A stretch of 47,099 nucleotides of DNA, taken from a virus. Lineage: Duplodnaviria > Heunggongvirae > Uroviricota > Caudoviricetes. The stretch covers positions 1-47,099 of the IMG/VR virus record IMGVR_UViG_2534681604_000006, one strand, 5' to 3'. Each line of letters begins with the position of its first letter. The first letter of the stretch is position 1. Below, in pieces: positions 33,075-45,498 of the stretch. The notes under the pieces are model-generated. The model ran no database searches and was not told where the DNA came from. It saw nothing but the letters and a program-made list of their open reading frames with translations. The translations under genes were made by a program, and so were the position numbers.

Positions 33075-33120
33075 ATTCGTAATGCGAAGGTCGTAGGTTC
33101 GACTCCTATTATCGGCACCA
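33075..33120 (+). other. 46-nt copy of the tRNA-Thr(CGU) 3' end, anticodon loop to CCA (prophage attR; attachment site used by the downstream island)
   Basis: ATTCGTAATGCGAAGGTCGTAGGTTCGACTCCTATTATCGGCACCA folds as the 3' two-thirds of a tRNA; the 5' part is absent, so this is not a functional tRNA gene. Confidence 0.75.
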
Positions 33121-33727
33121 TCAAGAAAATCAATAACTTAGCTTAACTTCTCTAAGAAATTGTATCTTCTGTTATCACTTACAAACGCCTATACGTTGTT
33201 ATGGGCTTTGGTAGTGTAACACGTATGGGCGAGTAGTTCACAGGCTCAACCTCGTAACAAGTTCCTTTGAAGCTGGAAGACGTGCCACCGTCTCTAAACC
33301 TTCTACCAAAACTCTTAGCAAGATGTTCCACACCTGGCGCGGTGTCCAATGATGCTACACGTCGTGAGACGTTGCAGAGGATAAACAGGCTAAATGATGG
33401 GAAGAGTTTTAAGTGCAATAGTGGATCAAAGCCCACCTCTTCAAAACCTAACTTGATCGGGAAAGAATCAAGCTCTAGCACGGTTTCGTCCACCGGAGTA
33501 CAACGGGTGCCTGATAAGAGAAGAACTGCTAAGACTTCATAGCTTTTGTGAAAAAGCCCTTTTTAGTGGATACGCCTACGGCGCTTATTTTTTGGGATAG
33601 CCCATCAAAGGCGCTTTATGGCTCCTATTGTCTTGAAAATGTATCTTTACTTGTATTGTGTTTTATGCGTAGTCTCCCTGTGTAGTATGTAACTTGTTAA
33701 TTTTCATATGAATACAGAGGTAACACG

Positions 33728-33886
33728 ATGAAAAACATTGCAGCTATCAAACGTAATAACCGCAAGATTCACGCTCGTAAGTTCCTGTCTACGCCAGAAG
33801 GAAAAGCCTGGCTAGAGCGTAAACAGAGAGAGAACGAAGAAAGAAAACTCCTTAGTGAGTTGAAATGGCTTAGAGAGGATTTCTGA
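33728..33886 (+). CDS. Small basic hypothetical protein (52 aa)
   Basis: ATG at 33728 preceded by GAGG; below the 60-aa cutoff of the ORF track. Confidence 0.3.
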   Translation: MKNIAAIKRNNRKIHARKFLSTPEGKAWLERKQRENEERKLLSELKWLREDF

Positions 33887-34177
33887 AAATCTCCAGAACG
33901 CAACAGGACGCATTCTAACGCTGTTTTCATTGCTTGGTATAGGGATGTATAGGTGATGTGTGTTTAATGCGTCTGTGAGCTTGTTTTGTGCCTTATTTTG
34001 CATTTTCATAATGCAGGAGAGAACACGGAAAACCTTAAAATTAATTATTGGGGTATTTAAGGCTATTTTCAGGTTATTTAAGGGTATTAAACTTGATTTA
34101 ATTGATTAAAATATAAACAGATAATTATGTATCTTATTGATTTATAAGGTTATTTTTAAATAAAGGTAAATAAAAAA

Positions 34178-34227
34178 TAAATAGCCATAAATAGCTATAA
34201 ATACGTCTAAATACATCTAAATACCTA
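34178..34227. repeat. Five tandem 10-bp iteron-like repeats
   Basis: AAATAGCCAT AAATAGCTAT AAATACGTCT AAATACATCT AAATACCTAT, one helical turn apart. Confidence 0.7.
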
Positions 34228-34703
34228 TATCCCTTCCTTATGGCTAGATTGCGAGAGGTGCTTAACGCGATTTTCAGCGCCCCCCGATCTGGAAAATCCA
34301 GAATCCCCAAATATCAGCAAGGAATTTTCTTGCGTAATCAACATCGTTTTTACCTATTAAATCATTACACAGAAAGCCTTTCTGTAATGTCTCTCACTAA
34401 ACTTTCACTAAACACGAGAATGATCGGTTTTATGTCGGATCAGATGCTAGAAACAGCACCACGTCTCACAAGGGCTGTAAGCGATGAAACCAGTGTTTAT
34501 GCGGGTACAGGTCAAAATATAGGCCAAAATCCATTTAACATAATAATCGTAATATGCACTAAGGAACACATAGAACGCCTTGAATTGATGTATCAGGGGA
34601 AAAGTGATGGATTTTTTACGTAGGAGCACGAAAGGGCTTCTATTGACTTTTGTATGTTATGAAATATAATTAAAGGTTTTTTTGTTTTTATCGTGTGATG
34701 TAG

Positions 34704-35150
34704 TGGATTACACAGGGGAATAGATTAAATGGTGTTCTGTTTATACAGGTTTATTTGTTAGATCAACAATTTGGCATTTCTAAACAGATGTTTGAACGTT
34801 GCCAAATGCCTTGACAACACAAGAAAAGGGCTTGCTATGCCACGCATTACACGAAATAAGGCTGTAAAAACAAAATAAATTTTAAAATTTGCACAAACGA
34901 GAGAACTCATTAAGAAACAAGCAGAACAATTTTTAGCCAACAATTTCTGATGGTGCTCTGTAAGCCGCATTACACAAGGCTTTGCGAAAGTGATGTAAAA
35001 GTGAAGAAAGTAAGAATTGCACTTTTAAGCTACTTTTCATTGAATTTTTTAGTATGGAATTACACAGGGAATAGAGAGCATTATTCTATGATTTACACAG
35101 GGAATATAGGGGGATTATGGCACACACATAGAAAGGCATTACACAGAGTG
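34704..35150. repeat. Dispersed ATTACACAGGG(AATA) direct repeats, at least six copies
   Basis: GGATTACACAGGGGAATAG, CATTACACGAAATAAGG, CATTACACAAGG, GGAATTACACAGGGAATAGAG, GATTTACACAGGGAATATAGG, GCATTACACAGAG. Confidence 0.5.
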
Positions 35151-35191
35151 CTATGTGACAAATGGATGTAACGAGAGGTTACATTCAGCTA

Positions 35192-35326
35192 CCCCCACAG
35201 AATTCTGTTAATCTTAACTTTTAAAGAGATTTTTACCCTAACAAAATTCTGTTACCCCACCCTAACAGAATTCTGTTAGACACCCCCACAGAAAACTGTT
35301 AGACACCCCCACAGAATTCTGTTACC
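35192..35326. repeat. Array of five direct repeats each containing the palindrome ACAGAATTCTGT
   Basis: Palindrome copies at 35197, 35241, 35265, 35288 and 35311, the last four at about 23-bp spacing, each flanked by CCC(C/T)...TTA(G)ACA. Confidence 0.7.
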
Positions 35327-36542
35327 TATTAGATCATTTATTAAATTACTTATTAAATTATAATATTATATATTTATTTATATGATCTTTTGCCTTCCGG
35401 CGTTAGCTTCACTCTCTGGCAAGCAGCCTTACTCCGCTACCTTTGGGCTTCGTGGCTGGCCCGTTCCGCTCACACCGAAAGCAAAGCGTTACTTTCTTCG
35501 TGTAACTTCGTTGGCGGTAACGCCCACGAAGAAATACTATTGCGCTGTGCGCAGTAAGAGTAATCACCTAACCAATCATACTGATTGCTTACGTGTTAAC
35601 TCTCTCTAACTCTTAATTACCCTCCTACATTTAATAACTCTGTTATTCTCTGTAGTTGTGTAATTACTCGAAGAGAGAGCGGCTAAAGCTCAATTACACT
35701 CTGCTTTCCTCGTGTAATTTCACTAAGCCTCAATACAATTTCACTTCCTACATTCTGTAGTCGTGTAATTGTTTTCGGTGGAAAAGCCAGAGGCGACACC
35801 GAAAGAGAATTCTGATCTTATTAATCTTATCTATCTTAGTTAATCTTCTTACTTATCTTACTTACTTTATCTACTTTATTATTAATAATAGCTTTATAAG
35901 CTCTGTGTAGCTCTCTGACGCAAGAAACAGCATTCAGGAAGGGAATCACCTTAGAAAAGTGTTCTTTGCGTCATAATGTGTTTTATGAAGGATTCAGAGG
36001 TGTTTCATAACAGGAGTGTATAGAGGATACTTTAGGTAATTAAAAATAAGGGGTCTAAATGCTTCTCTAACAGCATTAAGCAGGGTAGGGAATGGAAACG
36101 CATTGCCTACACATATAAGCTCACTACAGAGCTTTACAGAGCGTTTTATAAAGTGACTCTCTATCTTATATCTACCATCACCTTTTCATATACCTAACAA
36201 ATACAAAATAAGCCCCTTAAATAAGCCTCTGGCGAGCTAAACAACCTCTACATAAGAGAATGTATTGCTTTTATCAAAACTTCGTTAGAACGCGTTTTAG
36301 AGCGTTTTAGACAATAATGAAGAATAGCACTACACAGAAGAGCACGAATAGCTAAGAAAAAATGTAAGTGCATGAAAAAGATCAGTTTTTTTATGGAAAG
36401 GTATTGACAAATGTTTCTTTATATGTAATAATAGGTATTAGAGGGACAGAAAAACATTCTTCTCTAAATAATCAAAATCAATGCACTTTGAAGCCGTCAG
36501 GCTTGCAAGGTGTTTTTCTTTTAACTGAATAAGGAGTTTTTT

Positions 36543-36731
36543 ATGAAATGGTTTACCCCGGAGCACGTCATCTCGGCATTTAAAAAAGGTGAGCTTACAC
36601 GCCATCAAGTAGTAATGAATCGTAATATGGCAAGGAGTCGAGGTTATCCAGAGCGAGCAGCTTGCTTCAATGAAGCACTCAAGATTATTGATGAACTAAG
36701 AAAAAATGAAAAAGAATCTGAAACAGAGTAA
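36543..36731 (+). CDS. Hypothetical small protein, first gene of the island operon
   Basis: 62 aa; strong RBS AAGGAG 8 nt upstream. Confidence 0.55.
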   Translation: MKWFTPEHVISAFKKGELTRHQVVMNRNMARSRGYPERAACFNEALKIIDELRKNEKESETE

Positions 36732-36750
36732 AGAATAGAAGGAGAAAACT

Positions 36751-36918
36751 ATGAGCGAAACTAAGAAACCAATTCCGCGCACTTACCTACACGTTGACCC
36801 TGAAATCTTCAAGGTTTTATTTGCTGAAGCCAAGAAAAGGCAAATTATGGTCAGTGATTTGATGTTAGAAATCATTACTGAAGCAGCAGAGAACATCAAA
36901 CAAAAAAAGGGTAAGTGA
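36751..36918 (+). CDS. Ribbon-helix-helix-like small DNA-binding protein (55 aa)
   Basis: ATG at 36751 with RBS GAAGGAG; N-terminal beta-strand-like RTYLHVDPEIFKV followed by helices; not in the ORF track because it is under 60 aa. Confidence 0.5.
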   Translation: MSETKKPIPRTYLHVDPEIFKVLFAEAKKRQIMVSDLMLEIITEAAENIKQKKGK

Positions 36919-36969
36919 TCCTCATTCACTTTAGTAGCGCATTAAGCGTGATTTATAAGGAGATTTTTA

Positions 36970-37623
36970 ATGATTAATGAAGAACAATTTGTAAAAGTTC
37001 CTATGTGGATTCTAAAAATAAGCCAAGTAAACGGGCATAAATTTACAGATAGTGCTAAAAACCTTTACTGCTATCTGAAAGGGTTTGATCGTGCATTTCC
37101 CTCTTACGCTAAGATAGGCGATGTTTTTGGCATAACACCAAGAGCAGCAGAGGAAAGGGTTAAGAAATTGCTCGAAATGGGATTAATTATAAAAGATGCA
37201 CGACCAGGAAGTTCTAATGTCTATCAAGTGGTAGATATTCCACAAGAAGAAGCTAGACAAGAAGCCAAGACACAACAAGAAGCTACTGTTAAAGCTGTTC
37301 CTGATCAGCTTCCCCCTACGGAAGATAATAAACAGCCTTCTTTTGATGTTCTTGATGATTGGGATGCGCCTTTGCCGTGGGAGACGGAAGAAACACCTGT
37401 TTCATCAAATGAAAAGGTAGCTAATGATAATGAGGAGGATGTGTTAGAGAATTTTGCCTCTCTTATCATCCGGGAGAAACACAGAAGAACAGGAGGATCA
37501 TCATTTATAGACTTTGCAAATTCACTAGCTTATAGACACGGGCTAAAACGACCAAATGGTATTGAGGCATATTTTGCTAAGAAACATCCCAAAGTATATG
37601 AAGACTTTGATATTCCATTTTAA
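36970..37623 (+). CDS. HTH-domain protein, putative replication initiator/organiser
   Basis: 217 aa; N-terminal winged-HTH-like region (KNLYCYLKGFDRAFPSYAKIGDVFGITPRAAEERVKKLLEMGLI), acidic linker, basic C-terminus; RBS AAGGAG. Confidence 0.55.
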   Translation: MINEEQFVKVPMWILKISQVNGHKFTDSAKNLYCYLKGFDRAFPSYAKIGDVFGITPRAAEERVKKLLEMGLIIKDARPGSSNVYQVVDIPQEEARQEAKTQQEATVKAVPDQLPPTEDNKQPSFDVLDDWDAPLPWETEETPVSSNEKVANDNEEDVLENFASLIIREKHRRTGGSSFIDFANSLAYRHGLKRPNGIEAYFAKKHPKVYEDFDIPF

Positions 37624-37634
37624 TAAGGAGGGTT

Positions 37635-37913
37635 ATGATTCAATATTTAGTAAAAAATCAAGTAGACAGAATTCAGTGTAATGACACAGGAAAACGCATC
37701 TATGAAACACTTGCTTACCTCTATAAAGGAAAGCCAACACCGCTAAAATATAGCGATGTGTTACATCGAGCAGGGTGCTCTGAAGATGGTTTAAAATTCT
37801 GGCTTAGACAGCTATCAAATTTCGGTGTTATAGAGATTAAAGAATTATCTTTCTCTACATTCAATCTCAAAAGACTGGATAAAGAAATAGACTTCATCTA
37901 TTCCACTCTCTAA
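37635..37913 (+). CDS. Hypothetical protein
   Basis: 92 aa; RBS AAGGAGGG. Confidence 0.55.
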   Translation: MIQYLVKNQVDRIQCNDTGKRIYETLAYLYKGKPTPLKYSDVLHRAGCSEDGLKFWLRQLSNFGVIEIKELSFSTFNLKRLDKEIDFIYSTL

Positions 37914-38045
37914 AATCTCTCTATGTAATTAAAATATAAAAGGAAAACATTATTATGGTAATAGCTATGTGGTGGTTGTTGTTTTTTATGCTCGTAGAAA
38001 CATACTTCGGGGTGTTTTCCTTTAAAAGAAAAGGAAAAGTAAATA

Positions 38046-38456
38046 ATGGCAAAAAGAAAAAACAACGTTGTTAAGAAGATCGGTGATTCAGCTTCTCTTC
38101 TAAGTAAACCTAAATCTATTCTAAGACGCAAAGACTTTAAAGAGCTAGTTACGCTCACCAAGCAAAATAGCGCCCCTGGCGAATGGAAAACAGAGATTAT
38201 AGAACATTCTCCCTCTGTGCCTTGCGGAGATGAATTTAACGCCTTACAAGAAATCTTATCTTCAACACCTGGCGTATTCTGGAAACCTAGAAAAAGAAAA
38301 GAGTATATCGTTGATAGCTCTGATTTGCGCAAATACCAGATTTTAGGATTTGAAGATTATAATCACTACGTCGGTTATCTCGCCACCAATGGCCTAAATA
38401 ATTTAGTTCCTGAATTCCAAATTTTAGATAATGCTGATCACTATGGAGACTTTTAA
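38046..38456 (+). CDS. Hypothetical protein with basic N-terminus
   Basis: 136 aa; RBS present. Confidence 0.55.
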   Translation: MAKRKNNVVKKIGDSASLLSKPKSILRRKDFKELVTLTKQNSAPGEWKTEIIEHSPSVPCGDEFNALQEILSSTPGVFWKPRKRKEYIVDSSDLRKYQILGFEDYNHYVGYLATNGLNNLVPEFQILDNADHYGDF

Positions 38457-38457
38457 T

Positions 38458-38796
38458 ATGAACAAAAACACGTATGACACAATTTATTCACTAATTAATT
38501 ATTATGAGGATGATTACCTCCTGCCTTTAAACCGCGCTGAACTTGAAGCATACAAAGAAAACACGCCAGCGGCACTAAATGAGGCGTTTAAACACTGGGA
38601 TTTAGCTGTGAATGCCTTTGAGCACCTCTCTAAGCGTGTAGAGATGCTCTGTAAGCGTGAGAACGCATATCTAACAGCGGATCAGCTATTTGAGCTATCA
38701 AACTGGATAGAAGATATTGAATCGGACGTTCGCTATGTGGGAGATGGCCTTATTGAACTAGCTCAACGCTTAGGCGCTGCTATCACAGAAGAATAA
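38458..38796 (+). CDS. Hypothetical protein
   Basis: ATG at 38458 with GGAGA RBS, directly after the upstream stop; ORF track lists 38431 as an upstream alternative. Confidence 0.5.
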   Translation: MNKNTYDTIYSLINYYEDDYLLPLNRAELEAYKENTPAALNEAFKHWDLAVNAFEHLSKRVEMLCKRENAYLTADQLFELSNWIEDIESDVRYVGDGLIELAQRLGAAITEE

Positions 38797-39128
38797 AAAA
38801 AGCAACAAAAAAGTTGTAAAATATCTTGACATTTCATCTATTGTATGTTAATATAATTATATAGGGTGATTATTTTTCCTTTATTGGTTCGATATTAAAA
38901 ATTCTTCTTGTCGTTAAAGGGGAGTAAAATCTCCGCTCCCCGCTTCTCCTCCTTAAGTAAATACTGTGTCATTATTACCTCTTTTTTCCTTTGTTATGCA
39001 TACATCTTGGAGTGTGCATAACATAGGGTAATTACAAAGGCGGCTTTAAATGCTGCCTTTTATTTTGCCCGTTATGCAACTTAAAAGTTGTATTTCTTAC
39101 TTTAAACAAGGTAACAAGGTTTATATAA

Positions 39129-39341
39129 ATGTTGTTTTTAAACGATAAAGAGCAAATCATCAAGTATAAAGATGAAATGCTGAAAATTAATCCACAAATT
39201 ACCGAAATGGTAGCTAAATACGCTGGGTGTTCTGTCGAGGAAGTAGAACGATGTGTTGAAAAATATTTTTCTCCTTCTTCTCCGTCTACACCTTCCATTA
39301 ATGAATTAATCAAATTAAAAGCTAAGGAGATTACTAAATGA
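39129..39341 (+). CDS. Hypothetical small protein
   Basis: 70 aa; stop overlaps the next start. Confidence 0.45.
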   Translation: MLFLNDKEQIIKYKDEMLKINPQITEMVAKYAGCSVEEVERCVEKYFSPSSPSTPSINELIKLKAKEITK

Positions 39342-39700
39342 TTATTGATTTAGACACTCTGTTTCCAGTCCGAAAGACTTTCACAGATATTGTAAGTTAT
39401 TGTACTGATCCGTTTGCCTCTGTAGAAAGCAAGGTTTTTGCTTCTCTTCCTGCTGATGTTGAATGCGGCGACTTGATCACCAGCACTGGCGCTAAATATG
39501 TATCAGGAGATGATATCTATGTTGTTATGAGTGAATTTGTAACGGCTGGAGAAAACAAGCCTGTAGATGTTTTACGTAGCAATGCTGGCCTTGTATGCAT
39601 TAAAGCTGATGCGCTGAATGCTGTAAGTGAAGCAGCAAAAACAGCCTTAATTAAAAAAGGCTTCCAGCTTGAAGGCTTCCACTCTGTTTTCACTTCTTAA
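39338..39700 (+). CDS. Hypothetical protein
   Basis: 120 aa; RBS AAGGAG. Confidence 0.55.
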   Translation: MIIDLDTLFPVRKTFTDIVSYCTDPFASVESKVFASLPADVECGDLITSTGAKYVSGDDIYVVMSEFVTAGENKPVDVLRSNAGLVCIKADALNAVSEAAKTALIKKGFQLEGFHSVFTS

Positions 39701-39718
39701 TAAAAGGAATAATAATAA

Positions 39719-40747
39719 ATGATTCTAGGTAATGATTACGTTGATTTAGCTCCTCTGTTCTCTGCGCATAGCACTAGAAACTATCTGCTTTCTACTCTCG
39801 ACTTCACTGATCCGGTGGGCGTTAGTTCTCATAAAGTAGCTGTTTCCCAGCTTGTCGAAAGCAACGAATCTCTCTTTAACAAAGAGACAAGCCGTTTTAG
39901 TTCTGAACACAACGTTACTAAGCGAGAACAAGGTAAAGAATGGCTGATCGAAATCCCGTATTTTCTTCGTGAAGATGTGATCCGTCCTTCTGATGTTCAA
40001 GGCAAACGTAAGCCTGGCACTGATTTCCAGGAAACACTCACTGATATCTATGCGGAATATATCGCTAAACACAATGTTGCATTCCAGCGTACAAAAGAGA
40101 GCGTATTGGCTGCTTCTTTGTTCTCTGGCAAAACTTACACGCCTAAAACTGATGATGTTCTTATCGAATGGGGCAAGCTGTTTAACGTATCAGCTATGAA
40201 AGCCACGGTTAACGCTTCCAGCACTGACACCACGAAGATTTTTAAAGAATTTGATCAGATTGCTACTAACATTTTTGAAATCACACAAAGCCAGGCGTCG
40301 GCGGTAGAACGCATTGTTGTTTTCTGTAAACCTGACGCCTTCTCTGCAATTCGATTCTCTGCTGGTATGGCAAACGCATTCCAGTATGTAAGCCCACTGG
40401 AAGAGGGGAATGTTGTGTACCAGCGTCGTGACCTGCTACCAGGAGTGACAGCGTTCACTATTCCAGGAACTAACATTGATGTTGTTAAACTGGTAGATCC
40501 GCTACATCTGGCACATATGACCGCAGACGCTGTAGCGATTCCGAAGTTTGCTAAAGGCTCTAACGTCTACCAGGCCATCTATGGGGCGGCTTCCAGCACC
40601 TTTGAACTGATTAATGCCGCTCCTGCTGAGGTGTATAGCTACAGCTATGAATCTTCTCGTGGTGATGCTGTTAACGTTGTTACAGAGAATAGCCAGATGG
40701 TTGTAAACCACGGTGTAGGCTTCTCCGTTCAAATCACTGTTAAATAA
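39719..40747 (+). CDS. Hypothetical 342-aa protein, possibly structural; followed by a strong terminator
   Basis: Largest well-formed ORF in the middle of the operon; RBS AAAGGA; no motif recognised with confidence. Confidence 0.6.
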   Translation: MILGNDYVDLAPLFSAHSTRNYLLSTLDFTDPVGVSSHKVAVSQLVESNESLFNKETSRFSSEHNVTKREQGKEWLIEIPYFLREDVIRPSDVQGKRKPGTDFQETLTDIYAEYIAKHNVAFQRTKESVLAASLFSGKTYTPKTDDVLIEWGKLFNVSAMKATVNASSTDTTKIFKEFDQIATNIFEITQSQASAVERIVVFCKPDAFSAIRFSAGMANAFQYVSPLEEGNVVYQRRDLLPGVTAFTIPGTNIDVVKLVDPLHLAHMTADAVAIPKFAKGSNVYQAIYGAASSTFELINAAPAEVYSYSYESSRGDAVNVVTENSQMVVNHGVGFSVQITVK

Positions 40748-40766
40748 TATTTTAACGTGTAATAGA

Positions 40767-40798
40767 GGCGTGGCGTGTATTCACGCTTCGCCTTTTTT
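40767..40798 (+). terminator. Intrinsic terminator after the 342-aa gene
   Basis: Nested GC stems GGCG..GCGTG tatt CACGC..CGCC followed by TTTTTT. Confidence 0.65.
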
Positions 40799-40833
40799 AT
40801 TTATTTTTTTAAATTTTGAGAGGTGATTAAAAT

Positions 40834-41037
40834 ATGGAAGTGATTTTGAAATCAAAAAATGGTGTACACGTACATTTAGATGCTAATGATTCTAGAGGCT
40901 TGTTAAATCTGAAATATCTATGTTCTCTTTTAGATGTTCCCTATGAAGGCGTAAAAGCCCGTATGTTCAGATTAAACGAGAGTATTGATCAAGCTCTGCA
41001 CCATTTCTTAAGTAAAGAAGGTGATAAAAATGATTAA
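40834..41037 (+). CDS. Hypothetical small protein
   Basis: 67 aa; RBS GAGGTGA. Confidence 0.5.
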   Translation: MEVILKSKNGVHVHLDANDSRGLLNLKYLCSLLDVPYEGVKARMFRLNESIDQALHHFLSKEGDKND

Positions 41038-41051
41038 TAAGGGGATTTTAA

Positions 41052-42884
41052 ATGTTAGAAATTAACACTTCTAAAATTAAGAACACAGTAACATTTAGTG
41101 TAGATAAAGACAGCTTGAAAAAAGCGAAAGATTCTATTACAGGCTTAAAGAAACTCGCAGAAAATATCAAGCCCGCTAAATTAAGATTTGATAATGTCAC
41201 TAAAGGCTATAAGAAAGCACAAAACGAAGTAGACAAGATTACCCAGCAAAAAGCCAAAACAGAAAAGCAAAATCAAAGAGCACAAGCTGCCGCAGCAAGA
41301 GCACAGGCAAGGCAACAGCAACAAATAGCAGCACGTAAAGAGAAAGCAGAATTAAAGCTCCTCGATGTGTCAAGCTCTATCAGTGCAATGCACCGCCTCT
41401 CTGTAGCTGAACAATACAAAGCTATTGCACAGGCTAGAGAGATAGCAAAACAATATGAGCAAGGGGCTATCTCGCTTGCACGTATGAATAGCCAGATGAA
41501 ACGCCTACAACAGCAACAACGTAAGATCAATGGCAACAGGAAAGCCCAATTAGCCCCCGTTAAGGGAGGATCAGGGAATGCCGCCACTATGGGCGCTCTG
41601 TTATTTGGAGGCGCTACGGCTGCTGCTGGCGTGATGGCTGTTAGTAAAGCCTCTGAATTTATGGCTAACAGCTTTGCGAATGCTGAAGCCCAAGGGGAGC
41701 TAATTCAACGGGCCAAGCTGGGCGGTGTAGACGTTAACCAGATGTATAATATTACAGAATGGGCGTATAAAAACGGCGTTGACTCTATGATGGGTGATCA
41801 AGGGGCTAGGAAATACCTGGATCAGATGAAAGATGTTAGGGAACGTGCCGCAAAATCCTACAGTGAAGCTGAATTGGTGAAAGATAAGCAAACCGGAAAA
41901 TCTAAATGGAAAGGCGGTGATAACGCTATTAATGAACTTCTAAACATCGGTGTTATTAACAAAAGCGACCTTAAAAAATTTGCTGATAATCCAGCCGGAT
42001 TAATTTCTAAGGCTGTTAATGGAATGATGAAAAAAGGGTTTTCAGACTCCCAAATTGGACAACGTTTAGAAGACCTGGGCGATGATTTGATGCTTACGTC
42101 AAAATATTGGCAACGTTCCGTTAAAGATGTACAAGAAAGTATTAATCAGCAAAAAGCCTCTGGAAAATGGCTAACAGAAACACAGCAAGACTCTATTGTT
42201 AAATTCAGAGAGCTAAACAGACAGCTTTCACAGCTTTCTGATGCAAGACAAGTAGCATTCGTAGACGGCTTTATGAAATCTCTCGATCCAAAAGTAACGG
42301 AAGAGTTTATGAAAAACCTTTCTAATCTCACTCCGTATTTTACGAAGCTGGGCGAAGCGTCTGGAAGTCTCTTTGAGGCCATTATGAAGATTGTAAACTG
42401 GTTTAATCGTAATGATGATAAGACAGATGCTATTCAGAAAAATATGGGAGATGCACCGCCATTAAGCAATGAAGGAATGAAACAGAATCTTTCTAATCTC
42501 GTTCCTGATAAATATAAAGGCGCTGGCACTGCAACAACTACACCTGATAATACTCATTCCCTCTTTAACACAATTAAGGGATGGCTTTTCGATGATAATG
42601 CTTCTTCTGTGTCAGATGTAAAAATGTCAGTTAGTGAAGCACCGATAACCAATCTCAAACAGGGTGCTTTAAATAATCTTGCAATGACAACTCCGGCTTA
42701 TAATTTATCTCCTGTGTTTAACCTGAATCCAACGTTTGAAGTGGTAACAGAAGTTCCTCTTACTATTAATTCTGACACATCAAGATTAAGCGATTATGTG
42801 GATTTTACAGCGAGAGCAAGTCGGGATAGCTTCTTGAAATCATTAACATTAACCAGCTTATCAGGACAATCCAACGGCGGGTAA
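41052..42884 (+). CDS. Large coiled-coil protein with Gly/Ala-rich hydrophobic segment (tape-measure-like or other extended structural protein)
   Basis: 610 aa; Q/A/K-rich heptad-like region (QRAQAAAARAQARQQQQIAARKEKAELK) and GGSGNAATMGALLFGGATAAAGVMAV segment; RBS AAGGGG. Confidence 0.55.
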   Translation: MLEINTSKIKNTVTFSVDKDSLKKAKDSITGLKKLAENIKPAKLRFDNVTKGYKKAQNEVDKITQQKAKTEKQNQRAQAAAARAQARQQQQIAARKEKAELKLLDVSSSISAMHRLSVAEQYKAIAQAREIAKQYEQGAISLARMNSQMKRLQQQQRKINGNRKAQLAPVKGGSGNAATMGALLFGGATAAAGVMAVSKASEFMANSFANAEAQGELIQRAKLGGVDVNQMYNITEWAYKNGVDSMMGDQGARKYLDQMKDVRERAAKSYSEAELVKDKQTGKSKWKGGDNAINELLNIGVINKSDLKKFADNPAGLISKAVNGMMKKGFSDSQIGQRLEDLGDDLMLTSKYWQRSVKDVQESINQQKASGKWLTETQQDSIVKFRELNRQLSQLSDARQVAFVDGFMKSLDPKVTEEFMKNLSNLTPYFTKLGEASGSLFEAIMKIVNWFNRNDDKTDAIQKNMGDAPPLSNEGMKQNLSNLVPDKYKGAGTATTTPDNTHSLFNTIKGWLFDDNASSVSDVKMSVSEAPITNLKQGALNNLAMTTPAYNLSPVFNLNPTFEVVTEVPLTINSDTSRLSDYVDFTARASRDSFLKSLTLTSLSGQSNGG

Positions 42885-42917
42885 TTCCCGCCATAACATT
42901 ACAAGGAAATTATTATT

Positions 42918-43631
42918 ATGGCGACCGCCGGGATTTTAACCATACGTGCAGCAAATACTCCAGAACAACACGTTCAGGCTGTTTACAAAGCAGAACAAGA
43001 TATAAACTCTACAAAAAACGAAAATAGCAAAGCTAATACAACAAAAGGAGAAAATGGATTTGCTATTGTTACCAGTGGGCTGGCATCTTCTGGTAATGAC
43101 GTTTATGAAAATTATATGGCGCTGGCTTTTGACAGTGTAGATGATGTAAACGTGAGACGTTCGGCAGATGTTACAAGCTACCCCGTAGAAAATGGTGCTA
43201 CTGTGTCTGATCACGTTCAAATTAAAAACAATAAATTTTCTCTTAAAGGGCGTATCTCTGAAACACCGATTAAAAGCGATCCTGGCTTGTTAAAGAGTGC
43301 AGGGGTGAACGGGAACAGAAGATCATTAGCTATCGACTACCTGAATCAGATTATGGACAGTAGACAGCCTTTTCTTCTTGTTACAGAAAATAAAACTTTT
43401 GAGAACGTTGTTTTAACAGGCATCGAATACACAGAAGAAGCAAGCGAATCCCTGGTATTTGATCTTAGCTTTGAGCAGATCAGGCTCGTTTCGTATGGCA
43501 CAGTAAACACTGTAGCTATCAAAACACAGCCATCTAAGAACATCGGGGCGAATATGAAAAAACGTGTTAACACTGAAAAATCAAGTAGTGAAGGTGAAGA
43601 TACTATTACGCCTGCCTTTAAGCAGGAATAG
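42918..43631 (+). CDS. Hypothetical protein
   Basis: 237 aa; RBS AAGGA; last gene of the operon. Confidence 0.55.
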   Translation: MATAGILTIRAANTPEQHVQAVYKAEQDINSTKNENSKANTTKGENGFAIVTSGLASSGNDVYENYMALAFDSVDDVNVRRSADVTSYPVENGATVSDHVQIKNNKFSLKGRISETPIKSDPGLLKSAGVNGNRRSLAIDYLNQIMDSRQPFLLVTENKTFENVVLTGIEYTEEASESLVFDLSFEQIRLVSYGTVNTVAIKTQPSKNIGANMKKRVNTEKSSSEGEDTITPAFKQE

Positions 43632-43673
43632 CCGTAAACGCCTCTAAAACGCTCTGTAACGATGTAATTGTAA

Positions 43674-43704
43674 AAGAGGCTACCAATCTATGCTGAAGCC
43701 TCTT
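43674..43704. terminator. Hairpin between the convergent operon and the integrase gene
   Basis: AAGAGGCT (43674-43681) / AGCCTCTT (43697-43704) 8-bp stem with a 15-nt loop. Confidence 0.45.
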
Positions 43705-43712
43705 TATTGCGT

Positions 43713-44990
43713 CTATGGCGTTGTTTTACGCCTTAAATTTGATTTTTTATTGATTGATAAGCCTTTCTCTATTTCAGGGTAGCGTAGAAGCTCAATATAG
43801 TTTTTAAGCTCTACTGGAGAAGCTGCATTCTTGCTATATGTGCGGAATGTCTCTGTATTGCCGCGTGTATGGCCCAGGAGAAGGGCGATCCTGTCTTCTG
43901 GAATTTGATTTCGATCAAGAAGCTGTGCTACTCCGTGTCTCAGAGAATGAAACACCTTCCTTTCTGTTCCCTTTTCCCCTAAAGCCTTTCGTTTAGCTCT
44001 TGTAAATCTCTGCGTGTGCCACGTGGAACGTTTACCATCAGCACGCTCTGTAATGCTGGCGTGATAGAACAAAAAGCCATTATGAGGCTTTTCACGAAGA
44101 GATAACACCAATGGAGTGATAAGGCTATGCACAGGCACAAGACGTGCCGCAGCTTTCGTTTTTCCCTGTGTGATTTCAAAACACAGCACACCTTCGATCT
44201 CTTTCACATCGTCTATTGTGAGACTTGCTATCTCATTGATCCGCATCCCTGTATATAAACCGATAAGACACAAAGCCATCATTTCTTTGTTTTCTGCTGA
44301 ATTACCGGAAAATACTTGCAACACCTGCAATAGCTCTTTGTTAGAAAATGCCTCGTAGCTCTCTCTACTTTGTGCCACATCAAGCCTATGCCCTCGCCAG
44401 GGGGAGAGCGCCCTTTCTGGCGCATCGTGGTAACGTGATGAAGCTAACTCCCATAGCTGGGCCATTGGGCTGATATAATTTGCAATTGATTGTTGTGAAA
44501 GGGTTTTTTGCATGTGTTCTATCCAGCCTGTAACAGTGGTGCGGCTTACATCTTGCAATGCAATATCAGGCTTTTTACGGTAGGAGAGAAACATCTCTAC
44601 CGCTTTTCTTGCCTTAGCTAAAGTGGCTGGCTTCTTCTTCGTGCTGTTAATTGTCAGGTAGATTTCAAGAATTTTAAGCAATGACGGACACGAAGACGCT
44701 GTATCTTGCATTCTGGTAGCTGTTTTGGCGTATTTAGCCTTACTGCGTAACAGTTCCAGCGTGTTCTCTATTGTGCTGTTTACAGGGGCGACACTCTCCC
44801 GTAGACAATGGTATTCATCTGCAATCTGATCACGCTTTCTACGTGCAACACGAAGATTACTTGTATGCAGACTCCTAACAAACGTCCTTTTTCCTTCAAA
44901 AAAGGGCTGCATATACACAGGCAACGTGATCCTCAAATAGTAGTTACCGTAAGAATCACAGATTATGTATTGATTGGGCTTGTATCTCAT
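43713..44990 (-). CDS. int: Tyrosine site-specific integrase
   Basis: C-terminal catalytic motifs (RLVPV..., FHSLRHGVAQLL, LLGHTRGNTETFRTYS); start taken at ATG 44990 with GGGGAG RBS (upstream ATG at 45047 lacks one); adjacent to the att core. Confidence 0.85.
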   Translation of the reverse strand: MRYKPNQYIICDSYGNYYLRITLPVYMQPFFEGKRTFVRSLHTSNLRVARRKRDQIADEYHCLRESVAPVNSTIENTLELLRSKAKYAKTATRMQDTASSCPSLLKILEIYLTINSTKKKPATLAKARKAVEMFLSYRKKPDIALQDVSRTTVTGWIEHMQKTLSQQSIANYISPMAQLWELASSRYHDAPERALSPWRGHRLDVAQSRESYEAFSNKELLQVLQVFSGNSAENKEMMALCLIGLYTGMRINEIASLTIDDVKEIEGVLCFEITQGKTKAAARLVPVHSLITPLVLSLREKPHNGFLFYHASITERADGKRSTWHTQRFTRAKRKALGEKGTERKVFHSLRHGVAQLLDRNQIPEDRIALLLGHTRGNTETFRTYSKNAASPVELKNYIELLRYPEIEKGLSINKKSNLRRKTTP

Positions 44991-45133
44991 AAACTCCCCG
45001 GCTAAAGTGTCGGAGCGTTTGTAATGTGAAAATTGATTGTAACGCATAGAAAATGATGATTTTTTCTATAAGATTCAATCAATTAGTAATGGTCGTAGGT
45101 GATGGCATTAACACGAGATTAATCGAGTGTTTT

Positions 45134-45152
45134 ACTCCTATTATCGGCACCA
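45134..45152. repeat. Right att core direct repeat (19 nt of the tRNA-Thr 3' end) preceded by a degenerate tRNA-like arm
   Basis: ACTCCTATTATCGGCACCA identical to 33102-33120; 45081-45133 resembles the tRNA 3' half with substitutions and an insertion; sequence just right of both cores is also similar (AAATCAATAA). Confidence 0.7.
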
Positions 45153-45237
45153 TTTAAATCAATAAGTTACCCATCATTAGTACCTTCCTTATTTTTTGAC
45201 TGGGACAAATTTGGGACCGATGGGTTCAGGATCGAGT

Positions 45238-45498
45238 CTATTTGCCATGCGTGTTCGGTAAGGTGTTAGGCGCGAGGTGAGCATATCGACGAACCATTTC
45301 GATAGACTCCCAGCCTCCCATTTCCTGTAATACTGACAACGGGACTCCGGCCTGAACCAGCCAACTTGCCCAGGTGTGTCTCAAGTCGTGAAATCTGAAA
45401 TCATCAATACCAGCTCGTCTCAGCGCCGCTTTCCTTGTACACAGATACCCAGCGGTAATGATTTGCAATTCGAAAGAGTTCGTATTTCTCTCCCACAA
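45238..45498 (-). pseudogene. Integrase C-terminal remnant (P4/CP4-type tyrosine recombinase), N-terminus deleted
   Basis: Encodes only ...[42 protein letters not shown]...; no genuine start codon. Confidence 0.6.

Follow-up and report, generated by a model that had tools for sequence, protein, structure and literature searches.

An integrative island at thrW encoding capsid and tail-core proteins: a probable member of an undescribed Enterobacterales satellite family with virulent Stephanstirmvirinae as putative helpers

What kind of element is the AT-rich island that lies at 33121-45152 of the IMG/VR virus record IMGVR_UViG_2534681604_000006 (Caudoviricetes)? The whole 47,099-nucleotide stretch analysed, called the window here, consists mostly of a temperate prophage. 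The integrative island of 12,032 bp adjoins the right end of that prophage and is bounded by a 3' fragment of the tRNA gene thrW on the left and by a 20-nt repeat of the tRNA end on the right. The original prediction, made from the sequence alone, recognised no morphogenesis genes in the island and proposed that it could be a new satellite-like element or the carrier of an undescribed multi-gene system. The homology and structure searches that it suggested gave identities to a major capsid protein (MCP), a gpD-like decoration protein, a tail tape measure protein (TMP) and a tail tube initiator, all of which the original prediction had missed. As judged from sequence comparisons, the island is probably a member of an undescribed satellite family of the Enterobacterales, the helpers of which would be the virulent Stephanstirmvirinae (Justusliebigvirus and Phapecoctavirus). 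The first of the two proposals is thereby supported and made specific, and the second, taken as a defence system, has no direct support, PADLOC giving no matches.

The structural genes occupy the second half of a same-strand operon. The 342-aa protein (39719-40747, plus strand) is an MCP of the lambda gpE family with the HK97 fold (PF03864, E 2.5e-14; phrog_29). It matches PF03864 over residues 19-341 of 342 with 53.5 bits against a cut-off of 22.9, and RefSeq annotates it as 'major capsid protein'. Its best phage matches are those of Pseudomonas phages of the Pakpunavirus type (~24% identity), and it is 22% identical over the full length to the MCP of Phapecoctavirus. PMC12846349 places the Pakpunavirus-type phages and the Stephanstirmvirinae in the same broad capsid lineage. 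The 120-aa protein encoded beside the capsid gene (39338-39700, plus strand) was negative in a sequence-level PDB search and was matched only by the fold search; its model has a gpD-like fold, which identifies it as a predicted capsid decoration (cement) protein of the gpD type. The 610-aa protein (41052-42884, plus strand), described originally as a coiled-coil protein without identity, can now be named as a TMP (phrog_16051, E 1.6e-53). The 237-aa protein (42918-43631, plus strand) is a Dit-like tail tube initiator, a baseplate protein (PF21821, E 2.6e-29). Two small conserved proteins accompany these four, one of 70 aa (39129-39341, plus strand) encoded by the first gene of the morphogenesis block and one of 67 aa (40834-41037, plus strand) at the position where phages keep their tail assembly chaperones. 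Searches with Pfam, PHROGs, NCBIfam and PADLOC showed no terminase, portal, protease, sheath, tube, baseplate wedge, fibre, primase or defence domains, confirming the earlier impression that terminase, portal, primase and defence domains are missing. The virion gene set is incomplete, and particles would not form from it alone.

The tail-core genes point to one group of phages. A tblastn search with the TMP matched 134 of 50,697 phage records at 27-36% identity, and those examined were Stephanstirmvirinae (Phapecoctavirus and Justusliebigvirus). Whether the TMP of the E. coli islands or that of the Klebsiella islands was searched with, 134 phage records were matched, and their organism make-up was nearly the same. 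Stephanstirmvirinae, such as phi92 and phAPEC8, are virulent, non-integrating myoviruses with genomes of ~148 kb. In phiWec188, the TMP homologue is flanked by the genes of the tail chaperones on one side and by those of the baseplate on the other, and the product of the next gene is 50% identical to the 237-aa protein; in other members, this identity reaches 60%. Across members of the subfamily, the tube initiator is 50-76% identical to the product of the gene beside the TMP gene, and in a phage further removed, a relative of this gene bears the annotation 'tail tube initiator'. The order of TMP followed by initiator is common to the island and the phage, and the first 87 bp of the TMP gene show 85% DNA identity to Justusliebigvirus. 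The GC content of the island (38.9%) is near that of the Stephanstirmvirinae (37-43%) and unlike that of the host. In phi92, phAPEC8 and phiWec188, as in the island, homologues of the MCP (22% identity), TMP (28-42%) and initiator (50-76%) are found in the same relative order together with the terminal-repeat boundary sequence. However, these phages have ~250 genes, only three of which they share with the island; in a complete Justusliebigvirus genome, the MCP, TMP and initiator have homologues and the other island proteins have none.

Several of the phage records carry a doubtful host label. Several GenBank entries named 'UNVERIFIED Campylobacter phage' (MG065639, MG065645, MG065650, MG065656, MG065689 and others, L031-L033) are ~146-150 kb in length with close coliphage matches, and their taxonomy line reads Justusliebigvirus where checked; a Campylobacter host looks doubtful.

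The left part of the island contains a mimic of a helper-phage genome end, which is a candidate packaging site (34239-34316, plus strand). It comprises a 40-bp block (34249-34288), TTGCGAGAGGTGCT directly followed by TAACGCGATTTTCAGCGCCCCCCGAT, and then the motif CCAAATATC. The block is 100% identical to phi92 over 40 bp, and the annotated 343-bp left direct terminal repeat of phi92 ends inside it, at the junction of TTGCGAGAGGTGCT with TAACGCG. Since the terminal repeat ends within the block, the block spans the place where a genome end arises from concatemers. A blastn search of the left 3.4 kb against phages gave 63 records, of which those examined were Stephanstirmvirinae, with a best match of 95.7% over 46 bp; the phage set of this first allele comprises 46 records matching at 95-99%. 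Among the divergent members phi92, A150, KP2025 and Tr1, only a 26-nt core and CCAAATATC, ~30 nt away from it, are invariant; both are retained in the island, with unchanged spacing. The block is present in most of the E. coli sister islands, one of which retains only 58 bp of it amid replaced DNA. Sister islands with a different left cassette have a second allele, a related and distinct version of the end site. The phage records that match this allele form another set, 65 in number (phAPEC8, ESCO13, SKA64 and WPEC among them) and mostly Phapecoctavirus (81% over 85 bp, E 7e-13). The match lies near the record end in several records and at two places per record, as a terminal repeat predicts. 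The identity and position of the copied boundary suggest that it may serve as a helper packaging signal recognised by the helper terminase. Among 100,044 species-representative genomes, the 26-mer occurred once, in a mis-binned fragment of the same island. A 4-kb contig in a metagenome-assembled genome labelled 'Bacillota bacterium' (L036, JAEYLX010000052.1) shares 95-96% identity with the left part of the island and is probably a binning error.

The island is one of a family of chromosomal elements. Homologues of the MCP were found in E. coli, Citrobacter, Klebsiella, Enterobacter, Cronobacter, Dryocola, Sodalis and Serratia, all of them chromosomal. The gene order is constant in every locus examined (E. 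coli lineages, Klebsiella, Enterobacter and Serratia), with MCP identities of 38-75%. It runs from two small proteins, Rep, and proteins of ~93 aa, ~130 aa and ~114 aa, over a gap of 330-880 bp, to proteins of ~70 aa and ~120 aa, the MCP, a ~63-aa protein, a TMP of ~615 aa and an inward-facing DUF6538 integrase, which is kept at the same position in all the members compared. Portal, terminase, sheath and tube genes occur in no member. The tube initiator is found in several lineages at 51-60% identity and is missing from others, and the Rep slot is filled by unrelated Rep-sized proteins in other genera. The members are inserted at different tRNA genes; in a Klebsiella element, for example, the flanking 24-nt repeat corresponds to the end of another tRNA. 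Comparisons between island variants gave dN/dS values of 0.03-0.19 for the structural genes and most of the small open reading frames (ORFs), including 0.08 for the 62-aa gene between close variants, whereas the 55-aa gene had ~0.28 in both of the divergent comparisons from which a value was obtained. The low dN/dS values, and a partial gene set that has stayed the same and intact from genus to genus, indicate a conserved family rather than a decaying prophage. The relatives of the MCP in IMG/VR come, as judged by contig names, from isolate genomes rather than viromes in all but two cases, and are uninformative on packaging.

The members outside E. coli carry a further gene near the tRNA-proximal end, encoding a short (183-205 aa) tyrosine recombinase that consists of the catalytic domain only (L003 2768-3585, L005 2932-3689, L009 3955-4726 and L010 4243-4803, all on the minus strand). 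The size of this recombinase recalls the FimB/FimE-type invertases. In L003, L005 and L009, it is adjoined by a protein of 63-67 aa, the N-terminus of which resembles a signal peptide. Neither the short recombinase nor its neighbour is present in the E. coli thrW island.

The boundaries of the island show how it was inserted. According to an exact repeat search, the window contains exactly two copies of the 20-nt att core, ACTCCTATTATCGGCACCAT, one at 33102-33121 and the other at 45134-45153. At the left junction (33075-33121, plus strand), which ends in the first copy, the 46 nt at 33075-33120 are identical to the 3' part of thrW (tRNA-Thr(CGU)), as aligned with the annotated thrW of E. coli SA186, where this gene lies beside proA; the intact thrW is outside the window. 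The right junction (45080-45153, plus strand) consists of a degenerate tRNA-like arm (GGTCGTAGGT...) and the second copy. The tyrosine integrase at the right end (444 aa, 43713-45047, minus strand) is an intact ORF with Phage_integrase, SAM-like and DUF6538 domains. On re-examination, therefore, most of the original description of this site stood, including the integrase, the tRNA-like arm and an AT-rich interior unlike the prophage (38.9% against 48.9% GC); the direct repeat of a tRNA-Thr 3' end is also present at both ends, exact, with a length of 20 nt instead of 19 and with thrW as the tRNA gene. The tRNA-Thr(UGU) gene at 2095-2170, detected by ARAGORN, was rejected as the source of the att repeat, having a different sequence and being borne by the prophage. 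In SA186, the island abuts the intact thrW with no prophage beside it and is followed by an integrase remnant and chromosomal genes, as in the window. The island is thus a discrete mobile unit that is present with or without an adjacent prophage, and with its 12,032 bp, att sites and integrase it falls within the ~7-20 kb range of discrete integrative elements that is expected of phage satellites. At a coverage of at least 80%, it was found in 237 of 5426 complete E. coli genomes (~4%), and some part of it was found in 776 (~14%); strains with matches include SA186, MRE162 and the APEC strain BEN2908.

A predicted replication module completes the unit. The 217-aa protein (36970-37623, plus strand), which had been recognised at first sight as a winged-helix replication-type protein, matches phrog_270 (E 1.2e-10), phrog_391 (E 1.3e-7) and, weakly, HTH_36, and is predicted to be a lambda O-like winged-helix replication initiator with an O-like N-terminal domain. 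A putative origin at 35188-35390 (plus strand) consists of five or six iterons of ~23 bp (ACCCCCACAGAATTCTGTTAG, 35188-35324) and, behind them, an AT-rich stretch (35322-35390), an arrangement typical of origins that depend on an initiator. A 12-mer of the iteron occurs five times in the island, four of them in the array, and six times in the window, for which 0.09 occurrences are expected. Where a sister island has another Rep, the iterons at this place differ as well, and those of the Klebsiella element are also different. The initiator and the origin together would give the island its own replication.

These features can be arranged into a life cycle. The island is integrated at the 3' end of thrW, evidently by its own tyrosine integrase, as the att repeats, the intact integrase gene and the occurrence of the unit with or without the prophage show. 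Homology and anatomy suggest that infection by a helper would lead to derepression, excision and replication from the iteron and AT-rich origin by the O-like initiator. The lambda-E-type MCP and the gpD-like decoration protein would then assemble a shell of the island's own on the helper portal with the helper scaffold and protease. This shell would presumably be small for a genome of ~12 kb compared with 148 kb; our volume-scaling estimate gives T=3 to T=4, against T=13 for the helper. The helper terminase would package the island DNA through the copy of the inner boundary of the terminal repeat, and the helper sheath, tube, baseplate and fibres would be built around the island TMP and tube initiator, whose homology to the helper proteins is clear. 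Tail-core genes of its own might provide the satellite with specific tails, serve DNA delivery, or make it independent of helper genes that it shuts down. The yield of the helper would probably be reduced, as with other satellites. We give about an even chance to this scheme in full, namely a widespread satellite of phi92/phAPEC8-type myoviruses with its own mini decorated capsid, its own TMP and initiator in helper tails, packaging by the copied boundary and end alleles matched to the helper genus.

Several observations weigh against a satellite of the Stephanstirmvirinae. Only one of the two boundaries of the terminal repeat was found in the island, and with one boundary, processing by a terminase that makes direct terminal repeats is hard to account for. 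The end block has no recognisable copy in the Klebsiella, Enterobacter and Serratia members, and the left part of the Klebsiella island has no phage match. The block could also be a regulatory or replication element that merely lies at the edge of the repeat. With an MCP only ~22% identical to that of the putative helper, it is not obvious that the island shell would be compatible with the portal, scaffold and protease of the helper. The predicted attP junction GTGTTTTACTCCTATTATCGGCACCATCAAGAAAA has no match in the IMG/VR or JGI metagenome contigs, and several conserved island proteins received no assignment in profile, fold and NCBIfam searches. We also know of no precedent for a tape measure encoded by a satellite.

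The explanation that best survives beside this one, though an unlikely one, is an anti-phage interference island that is not packaged and spreads otherwise, whose capsid, TMP and initiator homologues would act as dominant-negative subunits and whose end copy would titrate or misdirect the terminase. In its favour, the parts of which the island has diverged copies are precisely those that nucleate the assembly of heads and tails, and the missing attP junction in the metagenome contigs would fit an element that is not packaged. Satellites and defence islands often hit assembly, and interference with tail assembly is described in PMC11364771. However, an island with its own integrase, origin and initiator appears built to excise and amplify, the decoration protein and the full-length capsid protein under purifying selection resemble a working shell, and end alleles matched to the helper clade are what a packaged element needs. 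The lack of PADLOC matches also argues against this explanation, and interference and spread as a satellite are in any case compatible with each other.

It is quite improbable that the island is instead a satellite or defective element of some other, perhaps temperate, phage that shares its tail-core genes and ends with the Stephanstirmvirinae by descent or exchange. Such a phage would account for an MCP whose best relatives are those of the Pakpunavirus type and which has no close phage relative, and for the Klebsiella and Serratia members without an end block, and the public phage collections are incomplete. However, the perfect identity of the block to phi92 and its 46 close phage matches, the correspondence of the second allele to a different record set, mostly of the other genus of the subfamily, and the absence of TMP homologues from any other phage group among the 50,697 records all favour the Stephanstirmvirinae themselves. 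A decaying prophage remnant without a function of its own, which a fragmentary structural gene set, a long gene-poor stretch and other remnants at thrW (the integrase fragment at 45238-45498, and Sp1 and Sp2 in Sakai) might suggest, is very improbable and already largely refuted by the comparative data, as the same partial gene set, order and intact ORFs persist across genera under purifying selection, the phage relatives are virulent viruses that do not integrate and have homologues of only three island proteins, and the integrase, origin and att sites are intact.

The left 3.4 kb of the island had been described as a largely non-coding, repeat-dense region of ~3 kb. It is indeed nearly free of ORFs and rich in repeats, RefSeq annotating a single 52-aa gene there in SA186 (33728-33886, plus strand; no Pfam or PHROG match), but it also holds the plausible iteron origin and the copy of the phage terminal-repeat boundary. 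A tblastx comparison with the Klebsiella and Serratia islands showed no degenerate genes in it. A mosaic alignment of 20 related loci revealed a variable segment at 33881-34701, a cargo hotspot that is replaced by cassettes of ~1.2-1.4 kb in seven of the loci (L013, L014, L015 and L024-L027). The product of these cassettes is either a serine recombinase of small size (179-185 aa) or a 183-aa protein that is secreted, and the allele of the phage-end mimic switches together with the cassette. The 8-mer TTACACAG has five plus-strand copies in a stretch of 800 bp at 34365-35146 (34365, 34708, 35060, 35093 and 35139), mostly as ATTACACAGGG or ATTACACAGA, and seven copies in the whole window, where 1.4 would be expected; one of the small regulators of the island may bind to it.

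The operon comprises 12 genes on one strand (36543-43631), as the original prediction had it. The further claim that nearly every gene has an AAGGAG-type ribosome-binding site (RBS) was overstated: AAGGAG precedes 5 of the 12 genes, and most of the others have partial Shine-Dalgarno matches. Eight of the 12 proteins were left unassigned by family profile searches, and PADLOC and NCBIfam scans of the island gave nothing relevant. The first two genes (36543-36918, plus strand) encode small conserved proteins of 62 aa and 55 aa with 60% and 40% identity, respectively, in the Klebsiella islands; neither has a family match in profile searches, and the 55-aa protein looks by eye like a ribbon-helix-helix regulator. 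The initiator gene is followed by those of three conserved proteins of 92 aa, 136 aa and 121 aa (37635-38796, plus strand) to which no function was assigned. For the 136-aa protein, the model had no significant fold match and a PDB profile search was negative. The first ATG of the 121-aa ORF (38431-38796) has no RBS and overlaps the previous gene by 26 nt; a start at 38458, giving 112 aa, is likelier because the ATG there is preceded by GGAG and the RefSeq call agrees.

Signals for transcription were located at four places, all on the plus strand. A promoter-like site ahead of the early or regulatory genes (36404-36432) has the form TTGACA-17-AATAAT with an extended -10 TG, as a consensus match only. 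A second, near-consensus site ahead of the capsid block (38826-38854) has the form TTGACA-17-TAATAT with TG, and ~180 nt after it lies a strong hairpin resembling an intrinsic terminator (39036-39066). The region 38826-39066 may be a late leader controlled by antitermination, another regulated leader or a small RNA. All the family members have a gap of 330-880 bp before the capsid block, and the idea of a conserved RNA structure in it was dropped since the regions from six members are not alignable. The last signal, a terminator-like hairpin directly after the capsid gene (40765-40800), corresponds to the terminator noted originally behind the 342-aa gene.

The neighbouring prophage (window 1-33074) is most of a temperate myovirus related to Salmonella SEN34; over 6.6 kb, it shows 97.8% identity to the Escherichia phages vB_EcoM-606R2/689R2. 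It has genes for a terminase, portal, sheath, tube, 669-aa tape measure and 1058-aa fibre. As its right end contains the 46 nt of thrW, the prophage also integrated at thrW, between the tRNA gene and the island. Its adjacent tRNA genes for Asn-GUU and Thr-UGU (2015-2170), the latter not the source of the att repeat, were the only hits in an Rfam scan of the window. The sole similarity between island and prophage proteins is a weak Dit-like match (25%, E 1e-4), and the island occurs in SA186 without the prophage, which was therefore rejected as the helper. The co-packaging with the neighbouring prophage that the original prediction proposed to examine is thus the wrong test, the prophage being unrelated and dispensable for the presence of the island. 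Just beyond the right repeat, an 86-aa C-terminal fragment of another tyrosine integrase (45238-45498, minus strand) was left behind by an element that occupied the thrW hotspot earlier; in SA186, the annotation gives it as an integrase pseudogene. Identity of the island with the thrW elements Sp1 and Sp2 of Sakai was rejected, these being a lambdoid remnant and a P4-like element.

How does the island compare with known satellites? Closest, in lifestyle only, is PLE of Vibrio cholerae, a chromosomal element of ~12-18 kb that has an integrase, replicates with an initiator and an iteron-type origin of its own, and exploits a large virulent myovirus rather than a temperate phage, as the island apparently does. 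Like the island, PLE lacks a portal and a terminase and probably needs a small capsid. However, no homologues of PLE proteins were found in the island, its integrase is a tyrosine rather than a serine recombinase, and the hosts differ. No PHROG or Pfam families matching the features of PLE (Vibrio host, serine integrase, RepA_N, TcaP, CapR and NixI) were found. PLE remodels the helper coat with the scaffold TcaP, whereas the island encodes its own capsid and decoration proteins, and we know of no tape measure or tube initiator in PLE.

In having its own capsid gene, the island is closest to the cf-PICIs of the Proteobacteria, which, according to 10.1101/2022.09.08.507074, use a capsid protein of their own instead of that of the helper. 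A cf-PICI encodes the whole head and packaging set and steals only tails, whereas the island has only the MCP and decoration protein, adds two tail-core genes, and has an MCP of the lambda-E family (PF03864). Of the cf-PICI set of MCP, protease, portal, head-tail connectors and small terminase, the MCP alone is present, joined by the decoration protein. The families that mark Gram-negative PICIs (alpA, pri-rep, and rpp/ppi or a small terminase) are missing, with no AlpA, primase, helicase or small terminase detected. P4-like satellites resemble the island in their size of ~12 kb, a tRNA gene and tyrosine integrase, a copied packaging or end sequence of the helper and a cargo hotspot, the hotspots of P4 being described in PMC9122126. 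Their helpers are temperate rather than virulent and the copied sequence is cos rather than a terminal-repeat boundary, and the island encodes shell and tail-core proteins. No homologues of sid, psu, delta or the alpha primase were found in the island, and the true P4-like element at thrW is Sp2 in Sakai. The original view that the island is neither a complete prophage nor a P4-like element or PICI is therefore upheld, as the defining gene sets are missing. The Mulch/Flayer systems of Streptomyces satellites (MiniFlayer) have partial encapsidation genes and a helper that does not lysogenise, as reported in PMC10690885. Partial encapsidation genes are common to both, but the hosts are unrelated, no sequences are shared, and the island is integrative. 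MiniFlayer, in turn, reportedly has no integrase and attaches to the helper virion. The island combines features absent from PICI, cf-PICI, P4-like and PLE elements, namely capsid and decoration proteins without a portal or terminase, plus a TMP and an initiator. A full-text literature search, with incomplete coverage and thus room for an earlier description, found neither this element described nor any satellite that exploits Phapecoctavirus, Stephanstirmvirinae, phAPEC8 or phi92.

To our knowledge, satellites of virulent phages are known from few systems (PLE-ICP1, and PICMI in vibrios), none of them exploiting the big virulent myoviruses of enterobacteria. If the reading proposed here is true, the island would be the first satellite known for phi92/phAPEC8-type phages and, as far as we know, the first to encode a TMP, and its copied 26-bp core would be the first candidate packaging recognition site for the Stephanstirmvirinae. 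The island is common, with full copies in ~4% and some part of it in 14% of the complete E. coli genomes, and the family is abundant in Klebsiella. Stephanstirmvirinae (phi92, phAPEC8 and the ESCO phages) are frequent in therapeutic and biocontrol collections. If the island hijacks and probably hinders these phages, host range, efficacy and gene transfer in phage therapy would be affected. In this family, parasite and helper would divide their tasks in a new way, and it may reveal a role of the tape measure beyond length.

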